From Escherichia phage vB_EcoM-fFiEco06: 64,000 bases of DNA. Positions 1 through 45,956 of this stretch are shown here, piece by piece (position 1 is the first letter of the stretch; every line of letters starts with the position of its first letter). Under the pieces are notes generated by a model. The model saw only the letters and a program-made list of their open reading frames with translations. It ran no database searches and had not been told where the DNA came from. A program made the position numbers and the translations under genes. The stretch lies in sequence record NC_054914.1; one strand, written 5' to 3'.

Positions 1-1235
1 CTGCATTACTGCCAATTTATCCAGGTGGTGGTACTCGTGCATCTACTGCCAAGGCAGTATTTGGATATGGGCCGCAGACTGACTCACAGTACGCTATTAT
101 AGTTCGTCGAAATGATGCTATTGTTCAAAGCGTTGTTCTTTCAACTAAGTGTGGTGAAAAAGATATTTACGATAGTAACATCTATATCGATGACTTTTTC
201 GCAAAAGGTGGTTCAGAATATATTTTTGCAACTGCACAAAACTGGCCAGAAGGATTCTCTGGAATTTTAACTCTTTCTGGTGGATTATCATCAAATGCTG
301 AAGTTACAGCAGGAGATTTGATGGAAGCTTGGGACTTCTTTGCTGACCGTGAATCTGTTGACGTTCAACTGTTTATTGCGGGTTCTTGTGCCGGTGAATC
401 TTTAGAAACAGCATCTACTGTCCAAAAACACGTCGTTTCAATTGGAGATGCTCGCCAAGATTGCTTAGTATTGTGCTCACCACCGCGTGAAACTGTTGTT
501 GGAATTCCTGTAACTCGTGCAGTAGATAATTTAGTTAACTGGAGAACTGCGGCAGGTTCATATACTGATAATAACTTTAATATTAGTTCAACCTACGCAG
601 CAATTGATGGTAACTACAAATATCAGTATGACAAATATAATGATGTAAATCGTTGGGTTCCATTAGCAGCTGACATTGCTGGTTTATGCGCGAGAACTGA
701 TAACGTTTCTCAGACTTGGATGTCTCCAGCTGGTTATAATCGTGGTCAGATTCTTAACGTTATTAAACTTGCTATTGAAACTCGCCAAGCTCAGCGCGAC
801 CGTTTATATCAAGAAGCTATCAACCCAGTAACTGGTACAGGTGGTGATGGTTACGTATTGTATGGTGATAAAACAGCTACTTCTGTTCCTTCTCCATTTG
901 ATCGTATTAACGTTCGTCGTCTGTTTAATATGTTGAAAACGAATATCGGACGTAGTTCAAAATATCGTTTGTTCGAATTAAACAACGCGTTTACTCGTTC
1001 ATCATTCCGCACAGAAACTGCCCAATACTTACAGGGAATTAAAGCTCTCGGTGGAATTTATGAATATCGTGTAGTTTGCGATACAACAAATAACACTCCG
1101 TCAGTAATTGATAGAAATGAGTTTGTTGCAACATTCTACATTCAACCGGCTCGTAGTATAAATTATATCCAACTTAATTTCGTCGCAACTGCTACTGGTG
1201 CAGATTTTGATGAGTTAACTGGTCTTGCAGGTTAA
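1..1235 (+). CDS. 18: tail sheath protein gp18, C-terminal ~410 codons (5' end upstream of window; frame open from nt 3)
   Basis: Frame open from window edge to TAA 1233-1235; sits directly upstream of 19/20 in conserved T4 order. Confidence 0.85.
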   Translation, partial: ALLPIYPGGGTRASTAKAVFGYGPQTDSQYAIIVRRNDAIVQSVVLSTKCGEKDIYDSNIYIDDFFAKGGSEYIFATAQNWPEGFSGILTLSGGLSSNAEVTAGDLMEAWDFFADRESVDVQLFIAGSCAGESLETASTVQKHVVSIGDARQDCLVLCSPPRETVVGIPVTRAVDNLVNWRTAAGSYTDNNFNISSTYAAIDGNYKYQYDKYNDVNRWVPLAADIAGLCARTDNVSQTWMSPAGYNRGQILNVIKLAIETRQAQRDRLYQEAINPVTGTGGDGYVLYGDKTATSVPSPFDRINVRRLFNMLKTNIGRSSKYRLFELNNAFTRSSFRTETAQYLQGIKALGGIYEYRVVCDTTNNTPSVIDRNEFVATFYIQPARSINYIQLNFVATATGADFDELTGLAG

Positions 1236-1880
1236 TTGATTATGGGGCTTCGGCCCCTATTCTCGAGGAAACAAGTGATTATTTCTAAGTTTGTTACAAT
1301 AAAACCAAGAAATCATTCAAAAATGTGGTCGACAATTCTGGGATATAAAGTATCATATCATGATACAGTATCTGTTCCAATAGAATTAATGCCAAAGAAT
1401 AGTAATAAAATAGTTGACGCTAAATGTGATTTGTGTGGTATTAAATTTAGTAGAAGCATTCAGCTTTTAAATAGAACACCCACGCATGCATGTAGAAAAT
1501 GTAGCATTAAACAAGTTGCTATTAAAAATTCGGAAGTTCAATCTGGAATAAGTAGACCATGGCAAAGAGGTGATAAACATCCTCGATGGACTGGTAAAAG
1601 AAAAGAGTTTGCATTATATGCTAGTAGAGTTCATTCTATAACTAAGTCAGCTAAAATAAGAAAAATCTGGTCAAAATGGCCAAATGCTGATAAAATAGGA
1701 GTGTGTGGTGTAGAAGGTGCTTACCAGCTTGATCATAAGGTATCTATCAAATATGGATTTGATAATTTAATTCCGCCGGAAATTATAGCAAGCGTAAAAA
1801 ATTTAGAAATAATCACTTGGGAATCTAACCGAGAAAAGTCAAAAAGAAATAGCGTAGATCTTTGGGATTTACTAGAATGA
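1236..1880 (+). CDS. HNH-family endonuclease-like protein with N-terminal CxxC...CxxC zinc ribbon; probable free-standing homing endonuclease; start codon uncertain (TTG 1236, ATG 1242, GTG 1272 or ATG 1323)
   Basis: C-terminal motif YQLDHKVSIKYGFDNL...ITWESNREKSKRN (D-H...N...N) and CDLCG...CRKC seen in translation; ORF fills the gene 18/19 gap. Confidence 0.55.
   Translation: MIMGLRPLFSRKQVIISKFVTIKPRNHSKMWSTILGYKVSYHDTVSVPIELMPKNSNKIVDAKCDLCGIKFSRSIQLLNRTPTHACRKCSIKQVAIKNSEVQSGISRPWQRGDKHPRWTGKRKEFALYASRVHSITKSAKIRKIWSKWPNADKIGVCGVEGAYQLDHKVSIKYGFDNLIPPEIIASVKNLEIITWESNREKSKRNSVDLWDLLE
1244..1257 (+). terminator. GGGGC-UUCG-GCCCC tetraloop hairpin immediately after gene 18 stop
   Basis: Perfect 5-bp GC stem with UUCG loop read directly; weak U-tract. 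Confidence 0.6.
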
Positions 1881-1887
1881 TTCTAAA

Positions 1888-1905
1888 GGCCTGTTTCGGC
1901 AGGCC
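1888..1905 (+). terminator. hairpin GGCCTG-(TTTCGG)-CAGGCC downstream of HNH ORF
   Basis: 6-bp stem read directly; followed by AT-rich late promoter region. Confidence 0.45.
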
Positions 1906-1906
1906 A

Positions 1907-1914
1907 TATAAATA
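1907..1914 (+). promoter_or_regulatory. T4-type late promoter TATAAATA (distal copy upstream of gene 19)
   Basis: Exact TATAAATA match. Confidence 0.55.
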
Positions 1915-1965: not shown

Positions 1966-1973
1966 TATAAATA
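1966..1973 (+). promoter_or_regulatory. T4-type late promoter TATAAATA (proximal, 15 nt upstream of gene 19 ATG, SD GAGG)
   Basis: Exact TATAAATA followed by GAGG and ATG 1988. Confidence 0.7.
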
Positions 1974-1987
1974 CTACAGAGGCTAAT

Positions 1988-2479
1988 ATGTTTGTAGATG
2001 ATGTAACACGAGCGTTTGAATCTGGTGATTTTGCTCGACCTAACTTATTCCAAGTAGAAATTTCTTATCTTGGACAAAATTTTACATTCCAATGTAAAGC
2101 CACTGCTTTACCAGCTGGTATTGTAGAAAAAATTCCAGTCGGATTTATGAACCGTAAAATTAACGTAGCAGGCGATCGTACATTCGATGACTGGACTGTT
2201 ACAGTAATGAACGATGAAGCTCATGATGCTCGCCAGAAGTTTGTTGATTGGCAAAGCATTGCTGCTGGTCAAGGAAACGAAATTACTGGTGGAAAACCTG
2301 CAGAGTATAAAAAGAGCGCTATTGTTCGTCAATATGCTCGTGATGCTAAAACAGTAACAAAAGAAATTGAAATTAAAGGTCTGTGGCCTACTAACGTGGG
2401 TGAACTTCAATTAGATTGGGATTCAAACAATGAAATCCAAACCTTTGAAGTAACTCTTGCTCTCGATTATTGGGAATAA
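1988..2479 (+). CDS. 19: tail tube protein gp19 (163 aa)
   Basis: Length and position match T4 gp19; late promoter and RBS upstream. Confidence 0.9.
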   Translation: MFVDDVTRAFESGDFARPNLFQVEISYLGQNFTFQCKATALPAGIVEKIPVGFMNRKINVAGDRTFDDWTVTVMNDEAHDARQKFVDWQSIAAGQGNEITGGKPAEYKKSAIVRQYARDAKTVTKEIEIKGLWPTNVGELQLDWDSNNEIQTFEVTLALDYWE

Positions 2480-2511: not shown

Positions 2512-4136
<1,625 letters not shown>

Positions 4137-4137
<1 letters not shown>

Positions 4138-4376
4138 TGGAAGGTTTAATTGAAGCTATTAAATCAAACGACCTCGTAGCCGCTCGTAAATTATTTGCTG
4201 AAGCCATGGCTGCAAGAACGACTGATTTAATTAAAGAAGAAAAAATCGCTATCGCTCGTAATTTCTTAATCGAAGGTGAAGAACCTGATGACGAGGATGA
4301 TGACGAAGACGAAGATAGTGATGATAAAGACGACAAAAAAGACAAAGACTCTGACGAAGACGAGGATGATGAATAA
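4137..4376 (+). CDS. 67: prohead core protein gp67 (acidic C-terminal tail)
   Basis: 79 aa, start overlaps gene 20 stop (TAATG); position and size as T4 gp67. Confidence 0.8.
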
Positions 4377-4801
4377 TGCTTCTGATCCCTGAAACTCATG
4401 AATTAGTTCTCGAGAATGTCGAAGCACTTATTCCTGAAGCACAGGGTCGCTTTGACGAATTGTCTTCTGCTTTAAATAAAGACGATATAAATACAATTGT
4501 CGAGAATATGCTTGATGATGAAACTGATTTAGCGGTTGCATTAGCTTCTATTAATGAAAATATGCCGTTAAATGAATTTATCGTTAAACATGTTTCTGCC
4601 CGTGGTGAAATTACTCGCACTAAAGATCGCAAAACCCGCGAACGTAATGCATTTCAAACTACCGGGTTGTCTAAAGCAAAACGTAGACAAATTGCTCGTA
4701 AAGCTACCAAAACGAAGATTGCCAATCCAGCAGGTCAATCTCGTGCTCAGCGTAAGCGTAAAAAAGCTCTTAAACGCCGTAAAGCATTAGGATTAAGCTA
4801 A
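4376..4801 (+). CDS. 68: prohead core protein gp68
   Basis: 141 aa, basic C-terminus; position between 67 and 21. Confidence 0.8.
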
Positions 4802-5439
4802 TGAATGAACCCCAATTACTAATTGAAACTTGGGGTCAACCTGGCGAAATTATTGATGGCGTACCAATGCTTGAATCTCATGATGGAAAAGACTTAGGTT
4901 TAAAACCGGGTTTATACATCGAAGGAATATTCATGCAAGCGGAAGTTGTCAATAGAAATAAACGTCTTTATCCAAAACGTATATTAGAAAAAGCGGTAAA
5001 AGACTATATTAATGAGCAAGTTTTAACTAAACAAGCTCTCGGAGAATTAAATCATCCTCCACGCGCTAATGTTGACCCGATGCAAGCCGCTATCATTATA
5101 GAAGATATGTGGTGGAAAGGAAATGACGTATACGGACGAGCTCGTGTTATTGAAGGTGACCACGGTCCTGGAGATAAATTAGCAGCTAATATTCGTGCCG
5201 GATGGATTCCAGGAGTTTCTTCTCGTGGATTAGGTTCATTGACTGACACAAATAAAGGTTATCGTATCGTAAACGAAGGATTCAAATTAACTGTAGGTGT
5301 TGATGCAGTATGGGGTCCAAGTGCTCCAGATGCATGGGTAACTCCTAAGGAAATTACCGAATCACAGACGGCTGAAGCCGATACAAGTGCCGATGACGCC
5401 TATATGGCTCTCGCAGAGGCCATGAAAAAAGCGTTATAA
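4801..5439 (+). CDS. 21: prohead core protease gp21
   Basis: 212 aa; length and position match T4 gp21. Confidence 0.9.
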   Translation: MNEPQLLIETWGQPGEIIDGVPMLESHDGKDLGLKPGLYIEGIFMQAEVVNRNKRLYPKRILEKAVKDYINEQVLTKQALGELNHPPRANVDPMQAAIIIEDMWWKGNDVYGRARVIEGDHGPGDKLAANIRAGWIPGVSSRGLGSLTDTNKGYRIVNEGFKLTVGVDAVWGPSAPDAWVTPKEITESQTAEADTSADDAYMALAEAMKKAL

Positions 5440-5442
5440 ATA
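5435..5442 (+). promoter_or_regulatory. late promoter TATAAATA for gene 22
   Basis: Exact match 28 nt upstream of ATG 5470. Confidence 0.65.
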
Positions 5443-5469
5443 TTATTATCTAAACAACAGGACTACAAA

Positions 5470-6279
5470 ATGCTTAAAGAACAACTGATTGCCGAAGCGC
5501 AGAAAATTGATGCTTCCGTTGCTCTTGATAGTATTTTCGAATCAGTTAATATTTCTCCGGAAGCAAAAGAAACTTTCGGCACTGTATTCGAAGCTACCGT
5601 CAAGCAGCACGCCGTTAAATTAGCTGAATCTCATATCGCTAAAATTGCTGAAAAAGCAGAAGAAGAAGTAGAAAAAAATAAAGAAGAAGCAGAAGAAAAA
5701 GCTGAGAAGAAAATCGCTGAGCAAGCTTCTAAATTCCTTGACCATCTTGCAAAAGAATGGCTCACTGAAAATAAATTAGCAGTAGATAAAGGTATCAAAG
5801 CCGAACTGTTTGAATCCATGCTTGGTGGATTGAAAGAGCTCTTCGTTGAACACAACGTTGTTGTTCCAGAAGAATCAGTTGATGTTGTAGCTGAAATGGA
5901 AGAAGAACTGCAAGAACATAAAGAAGAATCAGCTCGTCTGTTCGAAGAACTCAATAAGCGTGACGCATATATCAATTATGTGCAGCGTGAAGTGGCATTG
6001 AGCGAAAGTACTAAAGATCTGACTGAGTCTCAAAAAGAAAAAGTCTCTGCTCTGGTCGAAGGTATGGATTATTCAGATGCATTCTCAAGTAAATTGAGTG
6101 CAATCGTAGAAATGGTGAAGAAATCTAATAAAGATGAAAGCACTATTACTGAGAGTATAAATACTCCTGATACTGAAGCAGCCGGACTGAATTTCGTCAC
6201 TGAAGCTGTAGAAGATAAATCTGCACAAGGTGCAGAAGATATTGTAAGTGTATATGCGAAAGTCGCATCTCGTTTCTAA
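5470..6279 (+). CDS. 22: prohead core scaffold protein gp22
   Basis: 269 aa, Glu/Lys-rich coiled-coil-like protein; position upstream of 23. Confidence 0.85.
   Translation: MLKEQLIAEAQKIDASVALDSIFESVNISPEAKETFGTVFEATVKQHAVKLAESHIAKIAEKAEEEVEKNKEEAEEKAEKKIAEQASKFLDHLAKEWLTENKLAVDKGIKAELFESMLGGLKELFVEHNVVVPEESVDVVAEMEEELQEHKEESARLFEELNKRDAYINYVQREVALSESTKDLTESQKEKVSALVEGMDYSDAFSSKLSAIVEMVKKSNKDESTITESINTPDTEAAGLNFVTEAVEDKSAQGAEDIVSVYAKVASRF
6156..6163 (+). promoter_or_regulatory. late promoter TATAAATA inside 3' end of gene 22, candidate promoter for gene 23
   Basis: Exact TATAAATA ~135 nt upstream of gene 23 ATG. Confidence 0.55.
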
Positions 6280-6297
6280 TTTTAAAGGTTAACACAA

Positions 6298-7863
6298 ATG
6301 ACTATCAAAACTAAAGCTGAACTTTTGAACAAATGGAAGCCATTACTGGAAGGTGAAGGTTTACCGGAAATTGCTAATAGCAAACAAGCGATTATCGCTA
6401 AAATCTTTGAAAACCAGGAAAAAGATTTCCAGACAGCTCCGGAATATAAAGACGAAAAAATTGCTCAGGCATTCGGTTCTTTCTTAACAGAAGCTGAAAT
6501 CGGTGGTGACCACGGTTACAATGCTACCAACATCGCTGCAGGTCAGACTTCTGGAGCAGTAACTCAGATTGGCCCAGCTGTTATGGGTATGGTACGTCGT
6601 GCTATTCCTAACCTGATTGCTTTCGATATTTGTGGTGTTCAGCCAATGAACAGCCCGACTGGCCAGGTATTCGCACTGCGCGCAGTATATGGTAAAGACC
6701 CAATCGCTTCCGGTGCTAAAGAAGCATTCCACCCAATGTATGGTCCAGATGCAATGTTCTCTGGTCAGGGTGCTGCTAAGAAATTCGCTGCTTTGAAAGC
6801 AAGTGATACTCTTGAAGTCGGAACTATTTACACTCACTTCTTCCAGGAAACTGGTACAGTATATCTGCAAGCTACAGCAGCTAAACAAATTGATTCAGGC
6901 GCATCTGACGCAGACAAATTAGATGCTGAAATTAAGAAACAAATGGAAGCTGGTGTACTGGTAGAAATCGCTGAAGGTATGGCTACTTCTATCGCTGAAC
7001 TTCAAGAAGGTTTTAACGGTTCTACCGATAACCCGTGGAATGAAATGGGCTTCCGTATCGATAAACAAGTTATCGAAGCTAAATCTCGTCAGCTGAAAGC
7101 TGCTTACTCTATTGAATTAGCACAAGACCTCCGCGCTGTTCACGGTATGGATGCTGATGCTGAACTGTCTGGTATTCTGGCTACAGAAATTATGCTGGAA
7201 ATCAACCGTGAAGTTGTTGATTGGATTAACTACTCCGCTCAGGTTGGTAAATCTGGTATGACCCTGACTCCGGGTTCTAAAGCTGGTGTATTTGACTTCC
7301 AGGACCCAATCGATATTCGTGGTGCTCGCTGGGCAGGTGAATCCTTTAAAGCTCTGTTGTTCCAGATTGACAAAGAAGCAGTTGAAATTGCTCGTCAGAC
7401 TGGTCGCGGCGAAGGTAACTTCATTATCGCTTCCCGTAACGTAGTTAACGTTCTGGCTTCAGTTGATACCGGCATTTCTTATGCTGCACAAGGTCTGGCT
7501 ACTGGCTTTAACACTGATACTACCAAGTCAGTATTTGCTGGTGTTCTGGGTGGTAAATACCGTGTATATATCGACCAGTATGCTAAACAGGATTATTTCA
7601 CCGTAGGTTATAAAGGTCCGAACGAAATGGATGCTGGTATTTACTATGCTCCATATGTAGCTCTGACTCCGCTGCGTGGTTCTGATCCGAAGAACTTCCA
7701 ACCGGTAATGGGATTCAAAACTCGTTACGGTATCGGTATCAACCCATTTGCAGAATCCGCTGCTCAGGCTCCGGCTTCTCGCATCCAGAGCGGTATGCCT
7801 TCTATTCTGAATAGCCTTGGTAAAAACGCTTACTTTAGACGTGTATATGTTAAAGGTATCTAA
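6298..7863 (+). CDS. 23: major capsid protein gp23 (521 aa precursor)
   Basis: Sequence recognisable as T4 gp23 (MTIKTKAELLNKWKPLLEGEG...); length identical. Confidence 0.97.
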   Translation: MTIKTKAELLNKWKPLLEGEGLPEIANSKQAIIAKIFENQEKDFQTAPEYKDEKIAQAFGSFLTEAEIGGDHGYNATNIAAGQTSGAVTQIGPAVMGMVRRAIPNLIAFDICGVQPMNSPTGQVFALRAVYGKDPIASGAKEAFHPMYGPDAMFSGQGAAKKFAALKASDTLEVGTIYTHFFQETGTVYLQATAAKQIDSGASDADKLDAEIKKQMEAGVLVEIAEGMATSIAELQEGFNGSTDNPWNEMGFRIDKQVIEAKSRQLKAAYSIELAQDLRAVHGMDADAELSGILATEIMLEINREVVDWINYSAQVGKSGMTLTPGSKAGVFDFQDPIDIRGARWAGESFKALLFQIDKEAVEIARQTGRGEGNFIIASRNVVNVLASVDTGISYAAQGLATGFNTDTTKSVFAGVLGGKYRVYIDQYAKQDYFTVGYKGPNEMDAGIYYAPYVALTPLRGSDPKNFQPVMGFKTRYGIGINPFAESAAQAPASRIQSGMPSILNSLGKNAYFRRVYVKGI

Positions 7864-7877
7864 TCTTTGACGATTTA

Positions 7878-7895
7878 AGGGACCTTCGGGTCCCT
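7878..7895 (+). terminator. AGGGACC-UUCG-GGUCCCU hairpin with T-rich tail after gene 23
   Basis: 7-bp stem, UUCG loop, followed by TTAGTTGTTTTT. Confidence 0.75.
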
Positions 7896-7911
7896 TTAGT
7901 TGTTTTTATGG

Positions 7912-7919
7912 TATAAATA
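7912..7919 (+). promoter_or_regulatory. late promoter TATAAATA for gene 24
   Basis: Exact match ~28 nt upstream of ATG 7947. Confidence 0.7.
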
Positions 7920-7946
7920 AATCATATAAACCAAAAGGAAAGCGCA

Positions 7947-9230
7947 ATGGCTAAAATCAACGAACTTCTGCGCGAATCAACCACAACGAATAGCAACTCA
8001 ATCGGTCGCCCAAATCTCGTTGCTTTGACTCGCGCTACCACTAAATTAATATATTCTGACATTGTAGCAACGCAAAGAACTAATCAACCTGTTGCTGCTT
8101 TTTATGGTATCAAATACCTTAACCCGGATAACGAATTTACATTTAAAACTGGTGCTACTTACGCTGGCGAAGCTGGGTATGTAGACCGAGAACAAATCAC
8201 AGAATTAACAGAAGAGTCTAAATTAACTCTCAATAAAGGCGATTTATTCAAATATAATAATATCGTTTATAAAGTATTAGAAGATACACCATTTGCTGAT
8301 ATTGAAGAAAGCGATTTAGAATTAGCTCTTCAGATTGCAATCGTTCTTTTAAAGGTTCGTCTATTTTCTGATGCTGCAGTAACAAGCAAATTTGAAAACT
8401 CTGATAGCGAAATTGCGGATGCTAGATTCCAGATTAATAAATGGCAAACCGCAGTTAAATCTCGTAAACTTAAAACTGGTATCACAGTTGAATTAGCACA
8501 AGATTTAGAAGCAAATGGATTCGATGCTCCTAATTTCTTGGAAGATTTGCTTGCAACTGAAATGGCAGATGAAATCAATAAAGATATTCTGCAGTCTTTG
8601 ATTACAGTGTCAAAACGCTATAAAGTTACAGGAATTACTGATACTGGATTCATTGATTTGAGTTATGCATCTGCACCTGAAGCTGGTCGTTCATTATACC
8701 GAATGGTGTGTGAAATGGTTTCACATATCCAGAAAGAATCAACTTATACAGCAACGTTCTGTGTTGCTTCAGCTCGTGCCGCTGCGATTCTTGCTGCATC
8801 AGGTTGGTTAAAACATAAACCAGAAGATGACAAATATCTTTCACAAAATGCCTACGGGTTCTTAGCTAATGGTTTACCGCTTTATTGCGATACCAACAGT
8901 CCATTAGATTATGTAATCGTTGGCGTAGTAGAAAATATTGGTGAAAAAGAAATTGTTGGATCAATTTTCTATGCTCCGTATACAGAAGGTCTTGACTTAG
9001 ATGACCCTGAACATGTAGGTGCATTTAAAGTTGTAGTTGATCCAGAAAGTTTGCAGCCATCTATCGGTTTATTAGTTAGATATGCTTTATCTGCAAATCC
9101 TTACACTGTAGCAAAAGATGAAAAAGAAGCAAGAGTAATTGATGGTGGAGATATGGATAAAATGGCGGGTCGTTCAGATTTGTCTGTTTTATTAGGTGTT
9201 AAGCTACCAAAAATTATCATTGATGAATAA
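7947..9230 (+). CDS. 24: capsid vertex protein gp24 (427 aa)
   Basis: Length and position match T4 gp24. Confidence 0.9.
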   Translation: MAKINELLRESTTTNSNSIGRPNLVALTRATTKLIYSDIVATQRTNQPVAAFYGIKYLNPDNEFTFKTGATYAGEAGYVDREQITELTEESKLTLNKGDLFKYNNIVYKVLEDTPFADIEESDLELALQIAIVLLKVRLFSDAAVTSKFENSDSEIADARFQINKWQTAVKSRKLKTGITVELAQDLEANGFDAPNFLEDLLATEMADEINKDILQSLITVSKRYKVTGITDTGFIDLSYASAPEAGRSLYRMVCEMVSHIQKESTYTATFCVASARAAAILAASGWLKHKPEDDKYLSQNAYGFLANGLPLYCDTNSPLDYVIVGVVENIGEKEIVGSIFYAPYTEGLDLDDPEHVGAFKVVVDPESLQPSIGLLVRYALSANPYTVAKDEKEARVIDGGDMDKMAGRSDLSVLLGVKLPKIIIDE

Positions 9231-23143: not shown

Positions 23144-25201
23144 CTACATTTTGAACTTTTTAGACATTCCGTTGATGTTAACCAAAGAAGTCAAGATTTG
23201 AGAAACTTCATTTTCCTCTTCTTTTGATTCTTCTACAAGGAATTGATTAAATCCAGCCATTGGACGAACTTCACCAGTTTCCATTAGATGGTCTCCATCA
23301 TATACTGATTCTTCTAATTGTTCAGAAGGAGGAACGATTGTACCTTCGATTAGATACTTGTTATAAGCAGTTTCTTTCATAAAGTACGTACTTACTTTAT
23401 TAATCTTCAGTAAAATTCCACGTGGTAGAATAACTTCAGCTTCTGATGGAAATCCTGATAAATGACCTGGAACGATAACTTTGATTCGCTCAGCTCCTTT
23501 AATTACCATACCCACGCTAGTTTCTGCATCTTCATTAGCATATGTAGAATGACTACCCATATGCATCAAATCTTCTGCATCAACGGAACCTTCTCCTTCA
23601 CCAGAAAATACTGCGCCGGAATCATCTAGAGCCATATAGTTTTTACCATGCTCACCGAAGATATTTGGTTTAAGCGATGTGGATACGAAGTTCTTGAAAT
23701 AGAACATTTTATTTTCAATGTTATGACGCAAAGTTTTAAAGGTAACTTCTTGCCCACGGTAAAGTGTAGTTCCTGGAGGAAGAACTGATCCTTTGGCAAA
23801 GGCAGAATCTAACGTCTCGATGTGCTTAATAGCTCGTTCCATGTATTCTTCACGGGTAGAATCTGGTTTACCCAAAAGGAACGAGTTCATTTCAACATAT
23901 GAATCTGCACAATAATCTTCAATTACATCAGATTCAGCCTGAGTCAGTCCTTTTGGAGCTACTTCGGTGCTTGCGTATTCATATGCCTGGGCAGCAGATT
24001 CATTAATCAATTTATAAATGCCATTCATTACAAATTGAATAATAGCTGTCTTTTCATCTGGTGTGGTTTTAGAACCTTTAACTAAATCATTAATAATTTT
24101 CTTAATAACATCAAAGCTATTAGAAATATTAATGTCAGCAAGATCGCTTAAAATTTTATCAGTTTTATAATCAAAGAATTCTTTATTCTTTAAATATTCT
24201 TGAGAACCTTGATATGTTATATCGCTCTGCAACTTGATAGATGGATCACGTAAACGTGCATGGGCCAATGCAATATGATTTCGGAAGCTTTCTAGTTCAT
24301 AATCGCTAGATTTAAAACGAGAAGCACTTCTCATACCACCGATAGCTCCTTTGCTGAAGTTTGAACCAATCTGGATAACGCCAGAGTTCATTGGTCCTTC
24401 TGCTTTATATACCGGAACTTTAGATTCAAACTCTTGATATTTCTTGGCAGCGAAGCTATCACCCTGTAGCGAAGCATCGACAGTAGAATATTGAGCTTGT
24501 GCTGCTAATCGACGACTAATTTTAGTTTTCTGAATAACAGCTTGGTCCGTGCGCTTATCATTTTCTAAAGCAATAGAAGCAGCAACAGCGACAGCTTTAG
24601 GAACAGCATTTCCTGTTTTAACGTCTACATAAACATCACCGACCTTTGATTCAACTTTTGTGAATAACTCAGTTGAAATGGGAGGTACACCTGGAATGTC
24701 TTCTAAATTGGCATTTTTACGGTAAACCATAATATATGCGTACTTTTTATCGTAATCCCAGATTTCCTTTAAAAGAACATATCGACCTGCTCCTTTAGTA
24801 CGTACTAAACGGTCAGCAATAACTTGCATTTGACGAGCTGCGCCATTTGTTTTACTCTTTAGTACACGGAATAAGCACGCGTCAATTTTATACTGCTTCA
24901 TTGTTTGAAGAGCAGTATCAAAAACGGCATTAATGACACCAATTGGATTTCCACCCAAGTTTTTAAGCTTAACTAATGATAGTTTCTCATTAACACCTAT
25001 CATTACGATATGCATCATTTTATCGCCTGGCTTAACGTTTTTATTCGTATCACCACCAGAGGTGTATGTACAAAATCTAAATCCAGGAAGCACGCTTTCT
25101 TCGCCGGCTTGAATAGCAAAAATTTGTGGTATTTTATGCTTAGGATTTAAGTTAACAACCGGCGCCGAAGCGCCGTCAAATAATTCTGTAATAAGTTCCA
25201 T
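23144..25201 (-). CDS. Alt-like ADP-ribosyltransferase paralog (685 aa), R-S-E motifs intact
   Basis: N-terminus MELITELFD shared with the upstream copy; TLYRGQ, NFVSTSL, EAEVILPRG motifs seen. Confidence 0.75.
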   Translation of the reverse strand: MELITELFDGASAPVVNLNPKHKIPQIFAIQAGEESVLPGFRFCTYTSGGDTNKNVKPGDKMMHIVMIGVNEKLSLVKLKNLGGNPIGVINAVFDTALQTMKQYKIDACLFRVLKSKTNGAARQMQVIADRLVRTKGAGRYVLLKEIWDYDKKYAYIMVYRKNANLEDIPGVPPISTELFTKVESKVGDVYVDVKTGNAVPKAVAVAASIALENDKRTDQAVIQKTKISRRLAAQAQYSTVDASLQGDSFAAKKYQEFESKVPVYKAEGPMNSGVIQIGSNFSKGAIGGMRSASRFKSSDYELESFRNHIALAHARLRDPSIKLQSDITYQGSQEYLKNKEFFDYKTDKILSDLADINISNSFDVIKKIINDLVKGSKTTPDEKTAIIQFVMNGIYKLINESAAQAYEYASTEVAPKGLTQAESDVIEDYCADSYVEMNSFLLGKPDSTREEYMERAIKHIETLDSAFAKGSVLPPGTTLYRGQEVTFKTLRHNIENKMFYFKNFVSTSLKPNIFGEHGKNYMALDDSGAVFSGEGEGSVDAEDLMHMGSHSTYANEDAETSVGMVIKGAERIKVIVPGHLSGFPSEAEVILPRGILLKINKVSTYFMKETAYNKYLIEGTIVPPSEQLEESVYDGDHLMETGEVRPMAGFNQFLVEESKEEENEVSQILTSLVNINGMSKKFKM

Positions 25202-25204
25202 GAT

Positions 25205-27259
25205 TTATCCTTGAACGAACTTGTAAGGCATGTTTGCAATATCTATACAAGACGCAATAATTCCAAGAGATGATTCTACTTTCTGTTTAACGTTTGATGA
25301 AACAAATGATGTAAAGTCAACTCTGTCTTCTATTTCAATATCACCTGTCATTGCAACTACTTCGCCGGTTTCCATTAGACGGTCACCGTCATAAATTACC
25401 GATTCGGTGAGTTCTTCTGTGGTCATAACTTCAGCTTGAATAAGCTTGTTGTTAGTTTTAACTGTTCCATCATTGTAAGATGCATCGGTTATTTTATTAA
25501 CTTTGACCATTAATCCACGTGGCAAAATGACTTCCATTTCATTTGAAGGTGCTAAACTTCCACCTGGTAAAACAACATTGACTTTATCAGCCCCAGTAAT
25601 AACCCATCCAATTCCAACTAAATTATCGCTAGAATTTACTAGTCCTTCATCAGTTTTATCAATAGAAACACTTAAACGCTTTTCGTCTGGTAAAACACCC
25701 ACAGATGAATCAGTCATCCAGGTACCAAAAATATTTGGATATAATGATGTTGACACAAAATTTCTAAAATAAAAAACTCGATTTTTTACCAGTGCTTCAT
25801 ATATTGAAGGTAACATTCGTTGTGAACGATACAAAGTAATACCTTTTGGTAATCGTTCACCATTTTTAAAGGCAGAATCTAAATTATCAATAGCTTTTTC
25901 TATATCAGATGCTGTCAAAATACTTGTACGCTCATCTGGATTATATAATCCCAAAAGAGCGTTATTTATGTCTACATATCCTGAACTTACGTATTCACGA
26001 ATTCCGCGTTTTTGTGCCGGTGTGTATTTAGATGAATCTTTATTTTCGACTATAGGATGTAGTGACCATCCAGCGGTAAGAGCATATCCACGCAATTCTC
26101 TTCGAATAATCTTTGTTTTTATTGCATTCCAAGAATTTTGTACTAACTCATTCGCAGCATCTTGATTTAAATGCGAATGCTTGTTAATGTTTCTTTCTAA
26201 CCAAGCACCTTTATATTTTTCTAAAGTATCATCAACTATAGAAGCAATAGTTTCTAAAGTTTTTATTGAAGTAATAGATTCTTTTCGTAATCTTTCTAAA
26301 GCTTTATTTTTTATTTCTGCATTAACATCAGATTCTTTATCTTCAGGAATTATAGAAGCTTCTCTGAATGCCATTCCAGCTGTAACACTACTAAGAGCAT
26401 TCTCTAATGCAAATCCTGAAGTAGAAATAACAGTTAATTCATTAGCGTCAGAAATTAAAGGAGCGTCAGCAGGTTTATTTAATTCTGCTGCTGAAGCCTC
26501 AAATTTTTGAAACATCGGCGTTTCAAATCTAGAAGATTCCAATGATTGACTTTGCGCAATTGCTCTACGGGAAATTTTAACTTTAACGATTACAGCTTGG
26601 TCAGAACGTTTATCATTTTCTTGCGCAATAGATGCTGCAATTGCCTCATTTTTAGTTACTTGAGCTCCAGTATCTTTATTGATATAAACATCACCGACCT
26701 TCGATTCAACTTTAGTAAAGAGCTCAGTACTAATTTCCGGAACTCCCGGAATGTCTTCTAGTGATACATTTTTGCGATGTATAAGAATATATGCATACTT
26801 TTTATCGTAATCCCAGAGTTCCTTAAGAAGGACATATCTGCCACCTGAACGACTACGGATAAGTCTATCAGCAATAACTTGAATTTGTCGAGCTTGACCA
26901 GCGGTTTTAGACTTAAGAATACGAAGCATACAGGCATCAATTTTATACTGACGCATTGTTTGCATCGCAACAGTAAAAACTGAATTGATATAATTAATTG
27001 GGCTTGGACCAAGACCTTTTAATTTAGCAATTGAACCTTTAGCAGTTAATGTAAAAGGAACAATATGCATCATTTTATCGCCCATCTTTAAATCGCGATT
27101 AGTATCACCTCCAGATGTATAGGTACATAAACGAAAGCCTGGTTGTTCAATTGCATCATCAACATGAACTGAAAAAATTTGCGGTATTTTCTTCTTTGGA
27201 TTTAAGTTTGTAATCGGAAGAGTAGTATCTTCGTCAAATAATTCTGTAATAAGTTCCAT
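25205..27259 (-). CDS. alt: ADP-ribosyltransferase Alt (virion-packaged); start taken as second ATG (MELITELFDEDTT...)
   Basis: LYRSQ, FVSTSL, EMEVILPRG (R-S-E ART motifs); late promoter and RBS upstream; ~684 aa. Confidence 0.8.
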   Translation of the reverse strand: MELITELFDEDTTLPITNLNPKKKIPQIFSVHVDDAIEQPGFRLCTYTSGGDTNRDLKMGDKMMHIVPFTLTAKGSIAKLKGLGPSPINYINSVFTVAMQTMRQYKIDACMLRILKSKTAGQARQIQVIADRLIRSRSGGRYVLLKELWDYDKKYAYILIHRKNVSLEDIPGVPEISTELFTKVESKVGDVYINKDTGAQVTKNEAIAASIAQENDKRSDQAVIVKVKISRRAIAQSQSLESSRFETPMFQKFEASAAELNKPADAPLISDANELTVISTSGFALENALSSVTAGMAFREASIIPEDKESDVNAEIKNKALERLRKESITSIKTLETIASIVDDTLEKYKGAWLERNINKHSHLNQDAANELVQNSWNAIKTKIIRRELRGYALTAGWSLHPIVENKDSSKYTPAQKRGIREYVSSGYVDINNALLGLYNPDERTSILTASDIEKAIDNLDSAFKNGERLPKGITLYRSQRMLPSIYEALVKNRVFYFRNFVSTSLYPNIFGTWMTDSSVGVLPDEKRLSVSIDKTDEGLVNSSDNLVGIGWVITGADKVNVVLPGGSLAPSNEMEVILPRGLMVKVNKITDASYNDGTVKTNNKLIQAEVMTTEELTESVIYDGDRLMETGEVVAMTGDIEIEDRVDFTSFVSSNVKQKVESSLGIIASCIDIANMPYKFVQG

Positions 27260-27282
27260 CATAGCCTCTCTAGTGTTTATTC

Positions 27283-40576: not shown

Positions 40577-41755
40577 TTAAAAGTATTTTTTAAAACTCAT
40601 CATAACTTTATCATCAACATCATTATCAATCTGTGCAACAAGGTAAGATGACAATTCTACTTCTTGTGGCGCAGATTGAACATTATCAGAATTAAGATAT
40701 TCACGAATCCAAGGATATGGATGTTTAACCGGAGCATCGGTAATTGGGCATGGAAGACCACACTGCTTCATACGAGATACAGTTAAGTAATCAATAAAGC
40801 TCCACATGCTATTTGTATTTAATCCAGGAACATCTCCATCTTTAAATAAATGAACTGCCCAATCTTTTTCTTGGCGGTTAACTTCCATGAAAATATCAAC
40901 TGCTTCTTGTTCACACTCTTGAGCAATTTTAACCCATTGATCGCCATCAGTACCAGATTGAAGTTGACGAATAATATATTGGGTGCCTTTAAGGTGAAGC
41001 TGTTCATCGCGTGCAATGAACTTCATAATCTTGGCATTACCTTCCATGATTTCCATGTTCTTATGGAAGTTAAAGGTACATGCAAAAGATACATAAAAAC
41101 GAATAGCTTCCAATGCGTTGATTACATGCAAACAGAGGTAAAGAGATTTCATTAGCTCACGCTTCCAATATGTCTCATGCTCAATAGCATCTTCAATAAC
41201 GTCTTCGTCTGCATTAATTTCTTTTTGGTATTCGATATCAGCTTTAGCGTTTTCCCAATAACGAGTTTTAATCAGAACATCATCATAATAACGTCCAATG
41301 GATTCAGCACGTTTCATAATAGCTTCATCTAATACAATCTCATCAAATACCTTCGATGGATCAGTATAAAGATTTCGCATGATATGAGTATATGAACGAC
41401 TGTGAATAGTTTCACTAAAAGTCCATGTAGCAACCCATGTATCAAGACTTGGGTCTGAAATTAATGACATAAGTACAGCAGACGGCGCACGACCCTGAAT
41501 GCTATCTAAAAGTGATTGATACTTCAGGTTGTTAGTAAAAATATTTTGCTGGTACTGAGGAAGCTTATTAAACTGTGCAGCATCCATCATCAAGTTTACT
41601 TCTTCAGGACGCCAGAAAAATGATAATTGCTTTTCGGTTAAATCTTCAAAAACTTTATGACGTTGAATATCATAACGCGCAATACCAAGACCTGAACCAA
41701 AAAACATAGGTTCTTTTAAAACATCAACTGGATTTGTATTAAAAACTGTGCTCAT
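40577..41755 (-). CDS. nrdB: ribonucleotide reductase small subunit NrdB, uninterrupted
   Basis: Continuous 392-aa ORF recognisable as R2. Confidence 0.9.
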   Translation of the reverse strand: MSTVFNTNPVDVLKEPMFFGSGLGIARYDIQRHKVFEDLTEKQLSFFWRPEEVNLMMDAAQFNKLPQYQQNIFTNNLKYQSLLDSIQGRAPSAVLMSLISDPSLDTWVATWTFSETIHSRSYTHIMRNLYTDPSKVFDEIVLDEAIMKRAESIGRYYDDVLIKTRYWENAKADIEYQKEINADEDVIEDAIEHETYWKRELMKSLYLCLHVINALEAIRFYVSFACTFNFHKNMEIMEGNAKIMKFIARDEQLHLKGTQYIIRQLQSGTDGDQWVKIAQECEQEAVDIFMEVNRQEKDWAVHLFKDGDVPGLNTNSMWSFIDYLTVSRMKQCGLPCPITDAPVKHPYPWIREYLNSDNVQSAPQEVELSSYLVAQIDNDVDDKVMMSFKKYF

Positions 41756-41806
41756 AAATTTTCCGCTTAGTTAATAGTTGGTGACTCGTCCGTGAGTCAA
41801 ATTATA

Positions 41807-44071
41807 TCATAATTTACAGGATGAACAATCTTCAGCTTTTGGAGTTTCTATTTCATAATCATCAGTACCAGAACCATCGCGGGTATTATGATAATAGAAA
41901 TTTTTTCCGCCAAAATACCAAAAATACAAAAGGTCATCAATCATTATTGACATTGGAACCTTGCCTTTAGGGAAGATTTGGGGGTCATAGTATGTATTCG
42001 CCGAAGCTGATTGACAAACCCATTTCAGCATAATAGCTACCTGCGTAAGATAAGGTTTATTACCTTTCTTAGCTAATTTCCATGTATAGTCGTAAAGGTC
42101 TATGTTATGCTCAATATTGGGCACGACTTGATTAAAGGAACCCTCTTTTGATTCTTTAACAGAGACTGGTCCACGTGGAGGCTCGATACCGTTTGTACTG
42201 TTAGAAACTTGGGAAGATGACTCACATGGCATAAGTGCTGATAATGTGCTATTACGGATGCCAAAGAGCTTAAGGTCTTCCCGCAGCGCCGACCAGTCAC
42301 AAACGTATTTTGGAGCTGCGATTTGGTCAATCTTTTTATTGTACCAGTCGATAGGTAATTCGCCTCGAGACCAACGAGTGTCTGAATAATATTCGCAAGG
42401 TCCTTTTTCTTTGGCGAGCTTAATGGATGCTTTAATGAGTCCATACTGTAATCTCTCAAATAGTTCATGTGTTAAATCATTAGCATCTTCATAAGAAGCA
42501 AAGTTACTTGCCAGCCAAGCTGCATAGTTGGTAACACCTACACCGAGGTTACGACGCTTTTTAGCTTTTTCTGCTTCAGGAACTGGATATCCTTGGTAAT
42601 CCAACAGATTATCAAGAGCACGAACTTGAACTTCTGCCAATTCATTAATTTTATCTTGGTCTTGCCAGTCAAAATTATCTAGTACGAATGCAGAGAGAGT
42701 ACACAATCCAATTTCAGCATCAGGACTATTCACATCATTTGTTGGAATAGCAATTTCACAGCACAAGTTACTCTGACGAATAGGTGCCTTTTCACGAATA
42801 AACGGAGTATAGTTATTCGTATTATCAATGAACTGTACATAAATTCTTGCTGTTCCTGAGCGTTCAGTCATGAGCAATTCAAATAGTTCACGGGCTTTAA
42901 TACGCTTTTTACGAATATTAGGGTCTTTTTCTGCTGCTTCGTATAATTCACGGAAACGGTCTTGGTCTTTAAAATAAGAATAATAAAGCTCTCCGCCCAT
43001 TTCATGGGGACTGAACAAAGTAATGTAATCGTTCTTTCCAAAACGTTCCATCATCAAATCATTCAGTTGAACACCATAATCCATATGACGAATGCGGTTT
43101 TCTTCTACGCCTTTGTTATTTTTCAAAACAAGAAGATTTTCAACTTCCAAATGCCAAATAGGATAATAAGCAGTAGCAGCGCCGCCACGAATTCCACCCT
43201 GTGAGCATGATTTAACAGCAGTCTGAAAATGTTTCCAAAAAGGAATAACACCAGTATGGCGTACTTCACCCATGCCAATCTTAGAACCTTCAGCACGAAT
43301 CATACCAACGTTAATACCAATTCCAGCGCGTTTAGAGATATATTCAACAATTGAAGCAGAAGCCTTATTGATAGACTTCAGTGAATCGCCTGCCTCAATA
43401 ACAACGCATGAACTAAACTGCCGAGTTGGAGTACGGCAACCAGCCATAATAGGAGTTGGTAATGAAATCTGTCGAGTAGATACCGCTTCATAAAAACGGA
43501 TAACATGTTTTAATCTATCAACAGGTTCATCTTGATGCAAGGCCATTCCAATAGTCATAAATGCAAACTGTGGAGTTTCATAAATTTGACCAGTGGTTTT
43601 ATCTTTAACTAGATATTTTTCTTTTAATTGCATCGCCCCGGAATAAGTAAATTCCATATCCCGTTCGTGCTTAATTTTTGATTCTAAAAATGTAATTTCT
43701 TCTGCTGAATATTTTGACAACAGTTCAGGGTCGTATTTACCTTCATTTACACAGTAAGAAATATGGTCAATAAATGAACGCGGTTCATACTGCCCATAAA
43801 CATGCTTACGAAGAGCGAACATTAGACAACGTGCAGCTACATATTGATAATCAGGCTCTTCGACCGAAATAGAATTCGCAGCGGCCTTAATGACAATAGT
43901 CTGAATATCATCAGTTGTCATTCCATCACGGAGATAAGATTTAATATTTTCATATAATTCATAAGGATCTACTGATGTTCCCTCAGATGCCCAAGATAAA
44001 ACTTTAATAATTTTTTGCGGGTCAAAGCTCTGAGAAACACCACTACTTTTGATAACATTAATTAATTGCAT
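41807..44071 (-). CDS. nrdA: ribonucleotide reductase large subunit NrdA (754 aa)
   Basis: Length matches T4 NrdA; class I RNR large subunit. Confidence 0.93.
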   Translation of the reverse strand: MQLINVIKSSGVSQSFDPQKIIKVLSWASEGTSVDPYELYENIKSYLRDGMTTDDIQTIVIKAAANSISVEEPDYQYVAARCLMFALRKHVYGQYEPRSFIDHISYCVNEGKYDPELLSKYSAEEITFLESKIKHERDMEFTYSGAMQLKEKYLVKDKTTGQIYETPQFAFMTIGMALHQDEPVDRLKHVIRFYEAVSTRQISLPTPIMAGCRTPTRQFSSCVVIEAGDSLKSINKASASIVEYISKRAGIGINVGMIRAEGSKIGMGEVRHTGVIPFWKHFQTAVKSCSQGGIRGGAATAYYPIWHLEVENLLVLKNNKGVEENRIRHMDYGVQLNDLMMERFGKNDYITLFSPHEMGGELYYSYFKDQDRFRELYEAAEKDPNIRKKRIKARELFELLMTERSGTARIYVQFIDNTNNYTPFIREKAPIRQSNLCCEIAIPTNDVNSPDAEIGLCTLSAFVLDNFDWQDQDKINELAEVQVRALDNLLDYQGYPVPEAEKAKKRRNLGVGVTNYAAWLASNFASYEDANDLTHELFERLQYGLIKASIKLAKEKGPCEYYSDTRWSRGELPIDWYNKKIDQIAAPKYVCDWSALREDLKLFGIRNSTLSALMPCESSSQVSNSTNGIEPPRGPVSVKESKEGSFNQVVPNIEHNIDLYDYTWKLAKKGNKPYLTQVAIMLKWVCQSASANTYYDPQIFPKGKVPMSIMIDDLLYFWYFGGKNFYYHNTRDGSGTDDYEIETPKAEDCSSCKL

Positions 44072-44940: not shown

Positions 44941-45956
44941 CATTATGTTCAGATAAGGTCGTTAATCTTACCCCGGAATTATATCCAGCTGCATGTCACC
45001 ATGCAGATCAGACTATATCTCCAACTTGTTAAAGCAAGTTGTCTATCGTTTCGAGTCACTTGACCCTACTCCCCAAAGGGATAGTCGTTAGGCATTTATG
45101 TAGAACCAATTCCATTTATCAGATTTTACACGATAAGTAACTAATCCAGACGAAATTTTAAAATGTCTAGCTGCATCTGCTGCACAATCAAAAATAACCC
45201 CATCACATGAAATCTTTTTAATATTACTAGGCTTTTTACCTTTCATCTTTTCTGATATTTTAGATTTAGTTATGTCTGAATGCTTATGATTAAAGAATGA
45301 ATTATTTTCACCTGAACGATTTCTGCATTTACTACAAGTATAAGCAGAAGTTTGTATGCGAACACCGCACTTACAAAACTTATGGGTTTCTGGATTCAAA
45401 CGCCCGTTTTTACTTCCGGGTTTACTGTAAAGAGCTTTCCGACCATCAGGTCCAAGTTTAAGCATCTTAGCTTTAACAGTTTCAGAACGTTTCTTAATAA
45501 TTTCTTCTTTTAATGGATGCGTAGAACATGTATCACCAAACGTTGCATCAGCAATATTGTATCCATTAATTTTAGAATTAAGCTCTTTAATCCAAAAATT
45601 TTCTCGTTCAATAATCAAATCTTTCTCATATGGAATTTCTTCCAAAATAGAACATTCAAACACATTACCATGTTTGTTAAAAGACCTCTGAAGCTTTATA
45701 GAAGAATGGCATCCTTTTTCTAAATCTTTAAAATGCCTCTTCCATCTCTTTTCAAAATCTTTAGCACTTCCTACATATACTTTATTGTTTAAAGTATTTT
45801 TAATCTGATAAATTCCGCTTTTCATAAATACCTCTTTAAATATAGAAGTATTTATTAAAGGGCAGTCCTACAATTTAGCACGGGATTGTCTACTAGAGAG
45901 GTTCCCCGTTTAGATAGATTACAAGTATAAGTCACCTTATACTCAGGCCTCAATTA
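44941..45956 (-). mobile_element. td group I self-splicing intron (1016 nt) carrying I-TevI
   Basis: Intron 5' sequence TAATTGAGGCCTGAGTATAAGGTGACTTATACTTGTAATC... recognised; length equals T4 td intron. Confidence 0.92.
45088..45825 (-). CDS. I-TevI: GIY-YIG homing endonuclease I-TevI (245 aa), intron-encoded
   Basis: N-terminus MKSGIYQIKNTLNNKVYVGSAKDFEKRWKRH (GIY...YVG) and zinc finger; length matches. Confidence 0.93.
   Translation of the reverse strand: MKSGIYQIKNTLNNKVYVGSAKDFEKRWKRHFKDLEKGCHSSIKLQRSFNKHGNVFECSILEEIPYEKDLIIERENFWIKELNSKINGYNIADATFGDTCSTHPLKEEIIKKRSETVKAKMLKLGPDGRKALYSKPGSKNGRLNPETHKFCKCGVRIQTSAYTCSKCRNRSGENNSFFNHKHSDITKSKISEKMKGKKPSNIKKISCDGVIFDCAADAARHFKISSGLVTYRVKSDKWNWFYINA

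Follow-up and report, generated by a model that had tools for sequence, protein, structure and literature searches.

Which gene lies between the tail sheath gene (gene 18) and the tail tube gene (gene 19) of Escherichia phage vB_EcoM-fFiEco06, and what does it do there? In the stretch analysed, 64,000 nucleotides (nt) of sequence record NC_054914.1 (hereafter the window), an open reading frame (ORF) at this junction had been taken, by a model that saw only the letters and the ORF translations (the sequence-only reading), for a free-standing HNH homing endonuclease. The core of that interpretation is upheld by the comparative evidence, but not its choice of Pfam models, its promoter duplication or its ORF start. 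We conclude, with a probability of roughly 70% given sequence comparison and structure prediction, that positions 1275-1880 encode a free-standing protein of the homing-endonuclease type from a divergent, unnamed HNH-like (beta-beta-alpha-metal) family. No description of any gene at the 18/19 junction was found in the literature open to searching, and the junction is not among the T4 endonuclease sites in a review of these elements (PMC2988022). Almost all records examined list the gene as 'hypothetical protein', with stray labels of 'HNH endonuclease', 'homing endonuclease', 'type II restriction endonuclease' and 'putative head morphogenesis protein'. The elements of the gene that bear on its identity are the following.

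1244-1257, plus strand: leader hairpin GGGGC-UUCG-GCCCC, part of the inserted cassette, found by RNA folding
1265-1269, plus strand: Shine-Dalgarno sequence GAGGA, 5 nt upstream of the GTG, by direct reading of the sequence
1275-1880, plus strand: endonuclease-like gene of 201 amino acids with a GTG start and a TGA stop (PHROG 5104, T6 annotation, 46 homologue clusters, AlphaFold2 model with a predicted local distance difference test score, pLDDT, of 91.7)
1425-1502, plus strand: zinc ribbon CxxC...CxxC (C51, C54, C73, C76) in the N-terminal domain, by cysteine conservation
1731-1829, plus strand: predicted beta-beta-alpha-metal core, with D153-H154 at 1731-1736, N176 at 1800-1802 and N185 at 1827-1829

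The 645-base-pair (bp) plus-strand ORF first proposed at 1236-1880 does exist, but its TTG start at 1236 is off by 39 nt. The coding sequence most likely begins at GTG 1275, giving 606 bp including the stop codon and 201 amino acids, because the GAGGA at 1265-1269, the start of PHROG 5104, the T6 annotation and the starts of homologues all point to this codon: the PHROG 5104 profile match (E 5e-82) begins at residue 14 of the long ORF, the T6 gene is annotated from the same GTG, and in other genera the homologues begin with corresponding (M/V)I(I/T/L) codons, mostly GTG-ATT. With this start, the hairpin at 1244-1257 falls in the leader, outside the ORF. In phage N2 the leader (1593-1640 of that locus) contains a duplication of 4 nt (TAATTGATTGATTGTGGGG), and GTG stands in place of the upstream ATG; an indel is thus tolerated in the leader upstream of the GTG start.

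The zinc ribbon and the C-terminal HNH motif proposed for this ORF fared differently. The four cysteines C51, C54, C73 and C76 (numbering of the 201-residue protein) are present and kept in at least 90% of homologues. The LDHKVSIKYGFDN...NLEIITWESNREK motif is also present, but it matches no curated HNH profile at threshold, and the suggested models PF01844 and PF13392 did not detect the protein. Conservation was more informative. Invariant in 43 homologues are C54, Y115, G145, Q151, D153, H154, S157, G161, N176, L177, W182, N185, R186 and K188. A profile of the C-terminal 106 residues retrieved 4033 cluster representatives (E<=0.001) from a library of 1.84 billion proteins, and in an alignment of 144 distant relatives, otherwise about 30% identical, the sole invariant columns are D153, H154, N176 and N185. 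This Asp-His/Asn/Asn pattern is the arrangement of cysteine-less HNH sites, with a general-base histidine after the aspartate, a structural asparagine and a metal-ligand asparagine. In the AlphaFold2 model (pLDDT 91.7), these residues are borne by strand 150-154, strand 177-181 and helix 182-188, the strand-strand-helix element that carries the active site of HNH nucleases. The motif residues therefore align to the catalytic positions of a predicted beta-beta-alpha element, a point on which the sequence-only reading could have failed. Sub-threshold matches to the Pfam models HNH_4 or HNH were detected on the DH...N...N region in six of ten relatives scanned, the best relatives reaching 20.9 bits for HNH_4 (cut-off 22; E 3.5e-4) and 18.1 bits for HNH (cut-off 21.4). 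A Foldseek search with the full-length model gave no significant match; the best structural matches of the predicted fold are two small nicking enzymes, Gme HNH (4h9d) and GVE2 HNH (5h0o), with weak similarity. These two and the D-H...N...N sites of I-HmuI and Cas9 resemble the 18/19 protein in their beta-beta-alpha-metal element, here a predicted one, with its Asp-His, structural Asn and metal-binding Asn, and the D-H...N...N site together with the Gme and GVE2 likeness suggests, by analogy, a nickase rather than a double-strand cutter.

The wider family points in the same direction. N-terminal to the conserved domain, relatives carry NUMOD3, HTH_23, HTH_7, HTH_28, HTH_38, Sigma70_r4, DUF7487 or DUF4379 modules, and since relatives pair the domain with NUMOD3, HTH, DUF7487 and DUF4379, the family displays the modular pattern of homing endonucleases, a nuclease domain joined to interchangeable DNA-binding modules. 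I-HmuI likewise has a NUMOD3 module. The N-terminal half of the 18/19 protein and its close homologues gave weak matches to the treble clef of DUF4379 in 15 of the 43 members (best E 8e-4), and this zinc-ribbon half (1275-1560) has a weak likeness in sequence and fold to the mitoribosomal protein mS66 as well as to DUF4379, which suggests that the three share a treble-clef module. The N-terminal zinc-ribbon domain presumably recognises DNA. It is to be noted that IPPEIIASVKNLEIITWESN (1770-1830, residues ~166-186) resembles a leucine-rich-repeat unit: spurious leucine-rich-repeat matches fall on 'IPPEIIGxIxNLxxIxWxxN' and can mislead automated annotation. Jumbo-phage-like contigs encode a DUF7487 protein that shares the C-terminal nuclease domain; after it comes a block of four small genes (around 5867-7050), which two contigs have and a third lacks.

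The junction itself was compared with that of related phages. Between 1000 and 2200 the window is 100% identical to Escherichia phage vB_EcoM-fHoEco02 and ~99% identical to T6, PST, PP01 and other Tequatrovirus; by sequence, the source phage is a T6-like Tequatrovirus. The features of the junction are these.

1-1235, plus strand: 3' part of gene 18 (tail sheath), stop codon TAA at 1233-1235, ~95% nucleotide identity to T4; annotated as tail sheath in fHoEco02
1237-1879, strand not applicable: inserted segment of 643 bp without counterpart in T4 and T2, by manual comparison of the junctions
1888-1905, plus strand: native hairpin after gene 18, the same in T4 (-12.8 kcal/mol, z -3.4)
1907-1914, plus strand: late-promoter box TATAAATA, native, identical in T4
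1966-1973, plus strand: second late-promoter box TATAAATA, native, identical in T4
1988-2479, plus strand: gene 19 (tail tube), its protein 100% identical to T4 gp19

The sequence-only reading was correct that T4 has only a short gap here: T4 and T2 each have an empty 18/19 gap of 116 bp, and neither has the ORF, while T6 is occupied. Direct comparison shows TAA-T-ACGGTGC-ATTCTAAAGG at the empty junction of T4 and TAA-T-[1237-1879]-ATTCTAAAGG here, so the insert takes the place of 7 bp (ACGGTGC) immediately behind the stop codon of gene 18. The sequence between 1880 and gene 19 is identical to T4, including the hairpin at 1888-1905, both TATAAATA boxes and a third hairpin. The hairpins at 1244-1257 and 1888-1905 were both confirmed by folding, but of this supposed pair of brackets around the insertion only the first belongs to the inserted leader, the second being found base for base in T4. 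Similarly, the copies of TATAAATA at 1907 and 1966 are genuine, but they do not represent a duplicated promoter region; a duplication of promoter or hairpin by the insertion was rejected because the same sequences already exist in insert-free T4. A transposon-like insertion was rejected as well, as neither target-site duplication nor terminal inverted repeats could be found.

The occupied state is polymorphic among close relatives at one precise site. With a 200-nt probe of the T4 junction, which matched 500 phage (Tequatrovirus) records, the junction was contiguous, thus empty, in 382, and ~76% of records lack any insert. The allele of this phage (at least 95% protein identity) was found in 68 records, with 98-100% identity across several Tequatrovirus species, and a second, RB9-type allele (RB3, RB9, RB10) in 48. 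The 7-bp junction is the same in all 18 empty Tequatrovirus loci examined, save for a single base in one of them (L031). Outside this genus, the sheath-tube junction is occupied in S16 (Gelderlandvirus), Klebsiella Jiaodavirus, Bp7, UP19 and PSD9 (Dhakavirus), EnA02 and CkP1 (Karamvirus), TH57 (Gaprivervirus), Serratia 92A1, Citrobacter Ci1, Acinetobacter Melin (Hadassahvirus, Twarogvirinae) and several metagenomic contigs, and in Sinorhizobium phiM12 a family gene directly follows the sheath gene. Family members thus reside at the sheath-tube junction in at least seven genera or lineages, and other genomes of the same genera have a short empty 18/19 gap of 58-210 bp. All family ORFs inspected are intact, with no frameshifted or truncated copy among them. 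A search of E. coli genomes returned no match to the insert; in IMG/VR a single-protein query found no relative and an alignment query found 80 loci. In phage Bp7 a further gene, at 3769-4350 between genes 19 and 20, bears the annotation 'HNH endonuclease', and the portal gene (4408-5630) is annotated in two pieces.

The alleles do not follow the phages that carry them. The gp19 protein is 100% identical between this phage and RB9, and also among UP19, PSD9 and Bp7, yet the N-domains of the endonuclease-like proteins are only 22-33% identical between those phages. Across genera, the N-domain of this allele is 60% identical to that of UP19, and the N-domain of RB9 shares 51-57% identity with its counterparts in PSD9, S16 and the Klebsiella phage; Tequatrovirus and Dhakavirus therefore have the same two N-domain classes in common. 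Judged on pairwise identities, the gene phylogeny does not follow the phage phylogeny, as is expected of horizontal spread. At the nucleotide level, the comparison of this allele with that of RB9 gives 95% identity in the 40-nt leader, ~55% in the N-domain part and 90-97% in the last 200 nt, a mosaic which, as far as the alignment goes, is a swap of recognition domains on one nuclease core.

The flanking gene 18 is polymorphic too, and one feature stands out.

1152-1184, plus strand: gene 18 cluster of nearly all synonymous differences (R-S-I-N-Y-I-Q-L-N-F-V codons), candidate co-conversion tract or target region

In these 33 nt this phage differs from T4 at 14 positions, as compared to ~2 per 50 nt in the rest of gene 18; all 14 are synonymous except at the Q/T codon. 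A similar pattern was observed in two other genera. S16 and an empty Gelderlandvirus contig are near-identical for 1400 nt and then show 27 differences in the final 100 nt of gene 18. In the Dhakavirus-like comparison, one occupied contig and each of two empty ones are set apart by 22-24 differences over the last 100 nt, with a peak at the PARSINYI codons as in Tequatrovirus. In all three genera occupied and empty alleles diverge within the last ~100 nt of gene 18 alone, in small and phylogenetically related samples. Empty Gelderlandvirus and Dhakavirus-like alleles read CGC AGC ATC AA(T/C) where occupied ones read AG(A/G) TCG ATA AAT; in Tequatrovirus, the Arg codon at 1152-1154 is CGT in all six genomes with this allele and AGA or CGC in all 18 empty loci. 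This flank pattern fits co-conversion between a putative cut site in gene 18 and the insert. T-even HNH homing endonucleases are inherited together with flanking markers (PMC2988022). The flank polymorphism is nevertheless no clean marker of a target site, because the gene 18 flank of RB9 is of the empty T2 type and near-identical empty haplotypes exist; for the same reasons, a simple model of a 'resistant allele' of gene 18 was rejected. In the same codons we noticed, at 1156-1163, the sequence TATAAATT, one base off the late-promoter box and ~110 nt upstream of the GTG. Occupied S16 and the occupied Dhakavirus-like contig carry GATAAATT there; T4-type alleles and the empty alleles of the other genera have no such near-box, T2-type empty alleles carry CATAAATT, and TB004 and SP21535 keep TATAAATT. 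In Melin and Bp7 a perfect TATAAATA lies in the leader of the family gene.

How might such a gene be expressed from within a structural operon? The leader of 39 nt contains no late-promoter box, and near the gene a scan for sigma-70 promoters and terminators gave no signal above chance. At every occupied locus a stable hairpin separates the gene 18 stop from the start codon, its sequence differing by lineage (GGGCC-UUCG-GGCCC in S16, a G-C to C-G swap relative to this phage), and most members of the enterobacterial branch have a GTG start. Beyond these signals, we observed a long-range pairing that had not appeared in the sequence-only reading.

1272-1297, plus strand: 5' arm of the long-range helix, comprising the last 3 leader nt, the GUG and codons 2-8 (26-nt inverted repeat, 24 of 26 positions complementary)
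1794-1819, plus strand: 3' arm of the long-range helix, codons V174-W182 (VKNLEIITW), with in-register pairing in homologues

The arms, ~500 nt apart, form the strongest separated inverted repeat in the 64-kb window, and the 3' arm includes the codon for the catalytic-type residue N176. The helix is present in both the minimum free energy and the centroid folds of the 671-nt transcript, in which part of the Shine-Dalgarno region is also drawn into the pairing (z -3.5). In the RB9-type, S16, Klebsiella, UP19 and PSD9 genes, and in further homologues with a GTG start, the start region again has its best complement in this 3' arm. From sequence and predicted folding, the mRNA may thus fold back to hide its own start codon and repress its translation.

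The repeat could also have no function at the RNA level and be a by-product of the conserved MIISK and NLEIIT peptides, which the two arms encode, and of shared ancestry. In favor of such an origin, the 13 distinct GTG-start homologues available are related, the helix was defined on one of them, and the more distant ATG-start members lack the pairing. Against it, third codon positions co-vary. In the 13 sequences 77% of cells pair in register, as opposed to 35-49% when the arms are slid, and the covariation score of 0.130 (0.098 +/- 0.009 in shuffles) was reached by only 1 of 500 shuffles. Seven helix pairs are changed on both sides: the Ile3 change ATT to ATC accompanies the Glu178 change GAA to GAG in 3 of 13 sequences, a leader A to U change accompanies Thr181 ACU to ACA, and a C-G pair is swapped to G-C; several other changes preserve wobble pairs. 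Synonymous sites in the arms are nearly frozen, with Leu177 as TTA and Asn176 as AAT in 13 of 13 beside neighbouring codons that vary freely, and the first ~25 nt of the ORF are kept between alleles whose N-domains are only ~55% identical in nucleotides. We therefore regard an inverted repeat without RNA function as a real, if somewhat doubtful, possibility.

Control of this type has precedents. In the Aeh1 mobE gene the ribosome-binding site is masked by a hairpin, and such hairpins have been reported for T-even endonuclease genes (PMC2988022). The 18/19 gene resembles Aeh1 mobE and I-TevI in that a paired translation initiation region would allow little of a potentially toxic protein to be made. 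It differs from these, and from hok and MS2, in that the partner lies ~500 nt downstream in catalytic-motif codons, with no local hairpin, and its effect is a predicted one. Long-range fold-back controls the expression of toxic or low-copy products in the hok mRNA and the MS2 maturation gene.

From these comparisons we infer cleavage, a target site, homing and a regulatory effect of the helix, in the following scheme. During mixed infection, the enzyme would nick or cut a co-infecting T-even genome in its insert-free 18/19 region, probably either within the last ~100 bp of gene 18 or across the empty junction, and recombination-dependent repair would copy the donor gene together with the adjoining end of gene 18. 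Expression would be kept low: since the 39-nt leader has no promoter of its own, the gene would depend on read-through of gene 18 transcripts past the leader hairpin, followed by initiation at a GUG codon. The long-range helix would further pair the start region, with part of the Shine-Dalgarno region in the predicted fold, to the catalytic-motif codons 500 nt downstream, so that the finished mRNA would be poorly translatable.

Such an element would not be without parallel in T-even phages. MobA-MobE and I-TevIII of T4 are likewise small nuclease genes of sporadic occurrence in or beside conserved essential genes, with a missing promoter or weak expression, and with an HNH-type motif and a zinc-binding DNA-recognition module. 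Mob proteins have the HNH_3 domain at the N-terminus and a DNA-binding region at the C-terminus (PMC2988022), an order that is reversed in the 18/19 protein, and no HNH_3 match was found in that protein or its 144 relatives, which sets it outside the Mob family. Hef of phage U5 is similarly a free-standing T-even homing endonuclease that belonged to no classical family when first described; a Hef-like identity was rejected, since Hef-type enzymes were placed in the Vsr-like (EDxHD) family (PMC3239194) and the motif here is HNH-like, with no similarity to that family, a separation made by description. As for other nucleases of this phage, a 245-amino-acid ORF at 45088-45825 (minus strand) has GIY-YIG, I-TevI zinc-finger and I-TevI DNA-binding domains, from which the source phage appears to carry the td-intron endonuclease I-TevI. 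In the ORF list the gaps at 7863-7947 and 41755-41807 are short; if they are 23/24 and nrdB/nrdA, as we deduced from the sizes of the ORFs and the gene order of T4, this phage would lack the T4 endonuclease genes segD and mobE. Elsewhere in the window, adjacent 685-amino-acid ORFs with ADP-ribosyltransferase domains at 23144-25201 and 25205-27262 (minus strand) are tandem Alt-like paralogues.

Several observations weigh against a mobile HNH-like endonuclease. No Pfam, NCBIfam or PADLOC HNH model matched the whole protein or its C-terminal half at threshold, and searches of PDB sequences with HMMER profiles of 43, 26 and 54 sequences found no HNH domain, returning instead zinc fingers, kinetoplastid mitoribosomal mS66 and spurious leucine-rich repeats, with the Cas9 HNH only at E 0.6. 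The zinc-binding cysteines usual in many HNH domains are missing. The gene 18 allele adjoining the RB9-type insert does not differ from the one in empty T2-type genomes, and the empty TB004, SP21535 and OES_C-2 depart from the haplotype beside the present allele at few sites, among which is always the Arg codon at 1152-1154. Finally, one locus is occupied across two subfamilies, which ancient residence followed by losses could also explain.

Following this last point, the gene might be an old resident of the sheath-tube junction, inherited vertically with many losses, that serves the phage in competition with co-infecting phages or in DNA processing and does not home. Relatives found at this position in Tevenvirinae, Twarogvirinae and a Sinorhizobium phage would be in agreement with this history, as would the intactness of every inspected ORF, the strong conservation of the catalytic-type residues, and the empty genomes with near-occupied gene 18 haplotypes, which are expected after deletion. 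We nonetheless consider it unlikely. Vertical descent is difficult to reconcile with widely divergent N-domains beside identical gp19 proteins and with N-domain classes that cross genera, or with an allele almost unchanged across several Tequatrovirus species most of whose records lack any insert; the 7-bp junction common to the 18 empty loci, apart from the single base in L031, is better explained as an uninvaded site than by many precise deletions, and the wider family is built from modules in the manner of homing endonucleases. That the protein no longer cuts DNA, being either a zinc-ribbon DNA or RNA binder that keeps a degenerate HNH-like relic or what remains of a decaying homing endonuclease, would suit the sub-threshold profiles, the weak structural similarity and the absent zinc cysteines, but is highly improbable given that the four expected metal-binding and general-base residues are the only invariant positions in 144 otherwise divergent sequences, that decayed copies were not seen among the loci inspected, and that cysteine-less D-H/N/N sites are active in I-HmuI and the Cas9 HNH domain.

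Taken together, the preferred interpretation of a free-standing homing-endonuclease-type protein can be extended, as a tentative proposal that we hold with less than even confidence, to a sheath-tube junction that would be the long-lived niche of a very large, unrecognised HNH-like clade (>4000 clusters at 50% identity) exchanging DNA-binding domains. In this proposal the enterobacterial branch would be under a novel form of control, a fold-back helix of ~20-40 bp between the ribosome-binding and start-codon region and the catalytic-motif codons 500 nt downstream, and an arms race of target sites against swapped recognition domains would have left the gene 18 synonymous clusters, the T4 allele among them. 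If it is true, only nascent transcripts or mRNA opened by ribosomes would be translatable. Recognition of the gene adds a homing-endonuclease family missed by current HNH profiles, whose conserved domain has thousands of relatives in phage-like contigs, and places it in T6 and its relatives, which are classical model and therapy phages. The alleles provide a natural pair with swapped recognition domains on the same nuclease core, and the locus marks a recombination hot spot inside the tail gene operon that bears on mosaicism and marker exclusion in T-even crosses. Should it prove functional, the helix between the start codon and the catalytic motif would offer a compact case in which translation of a toxic gene is controlled at long range.

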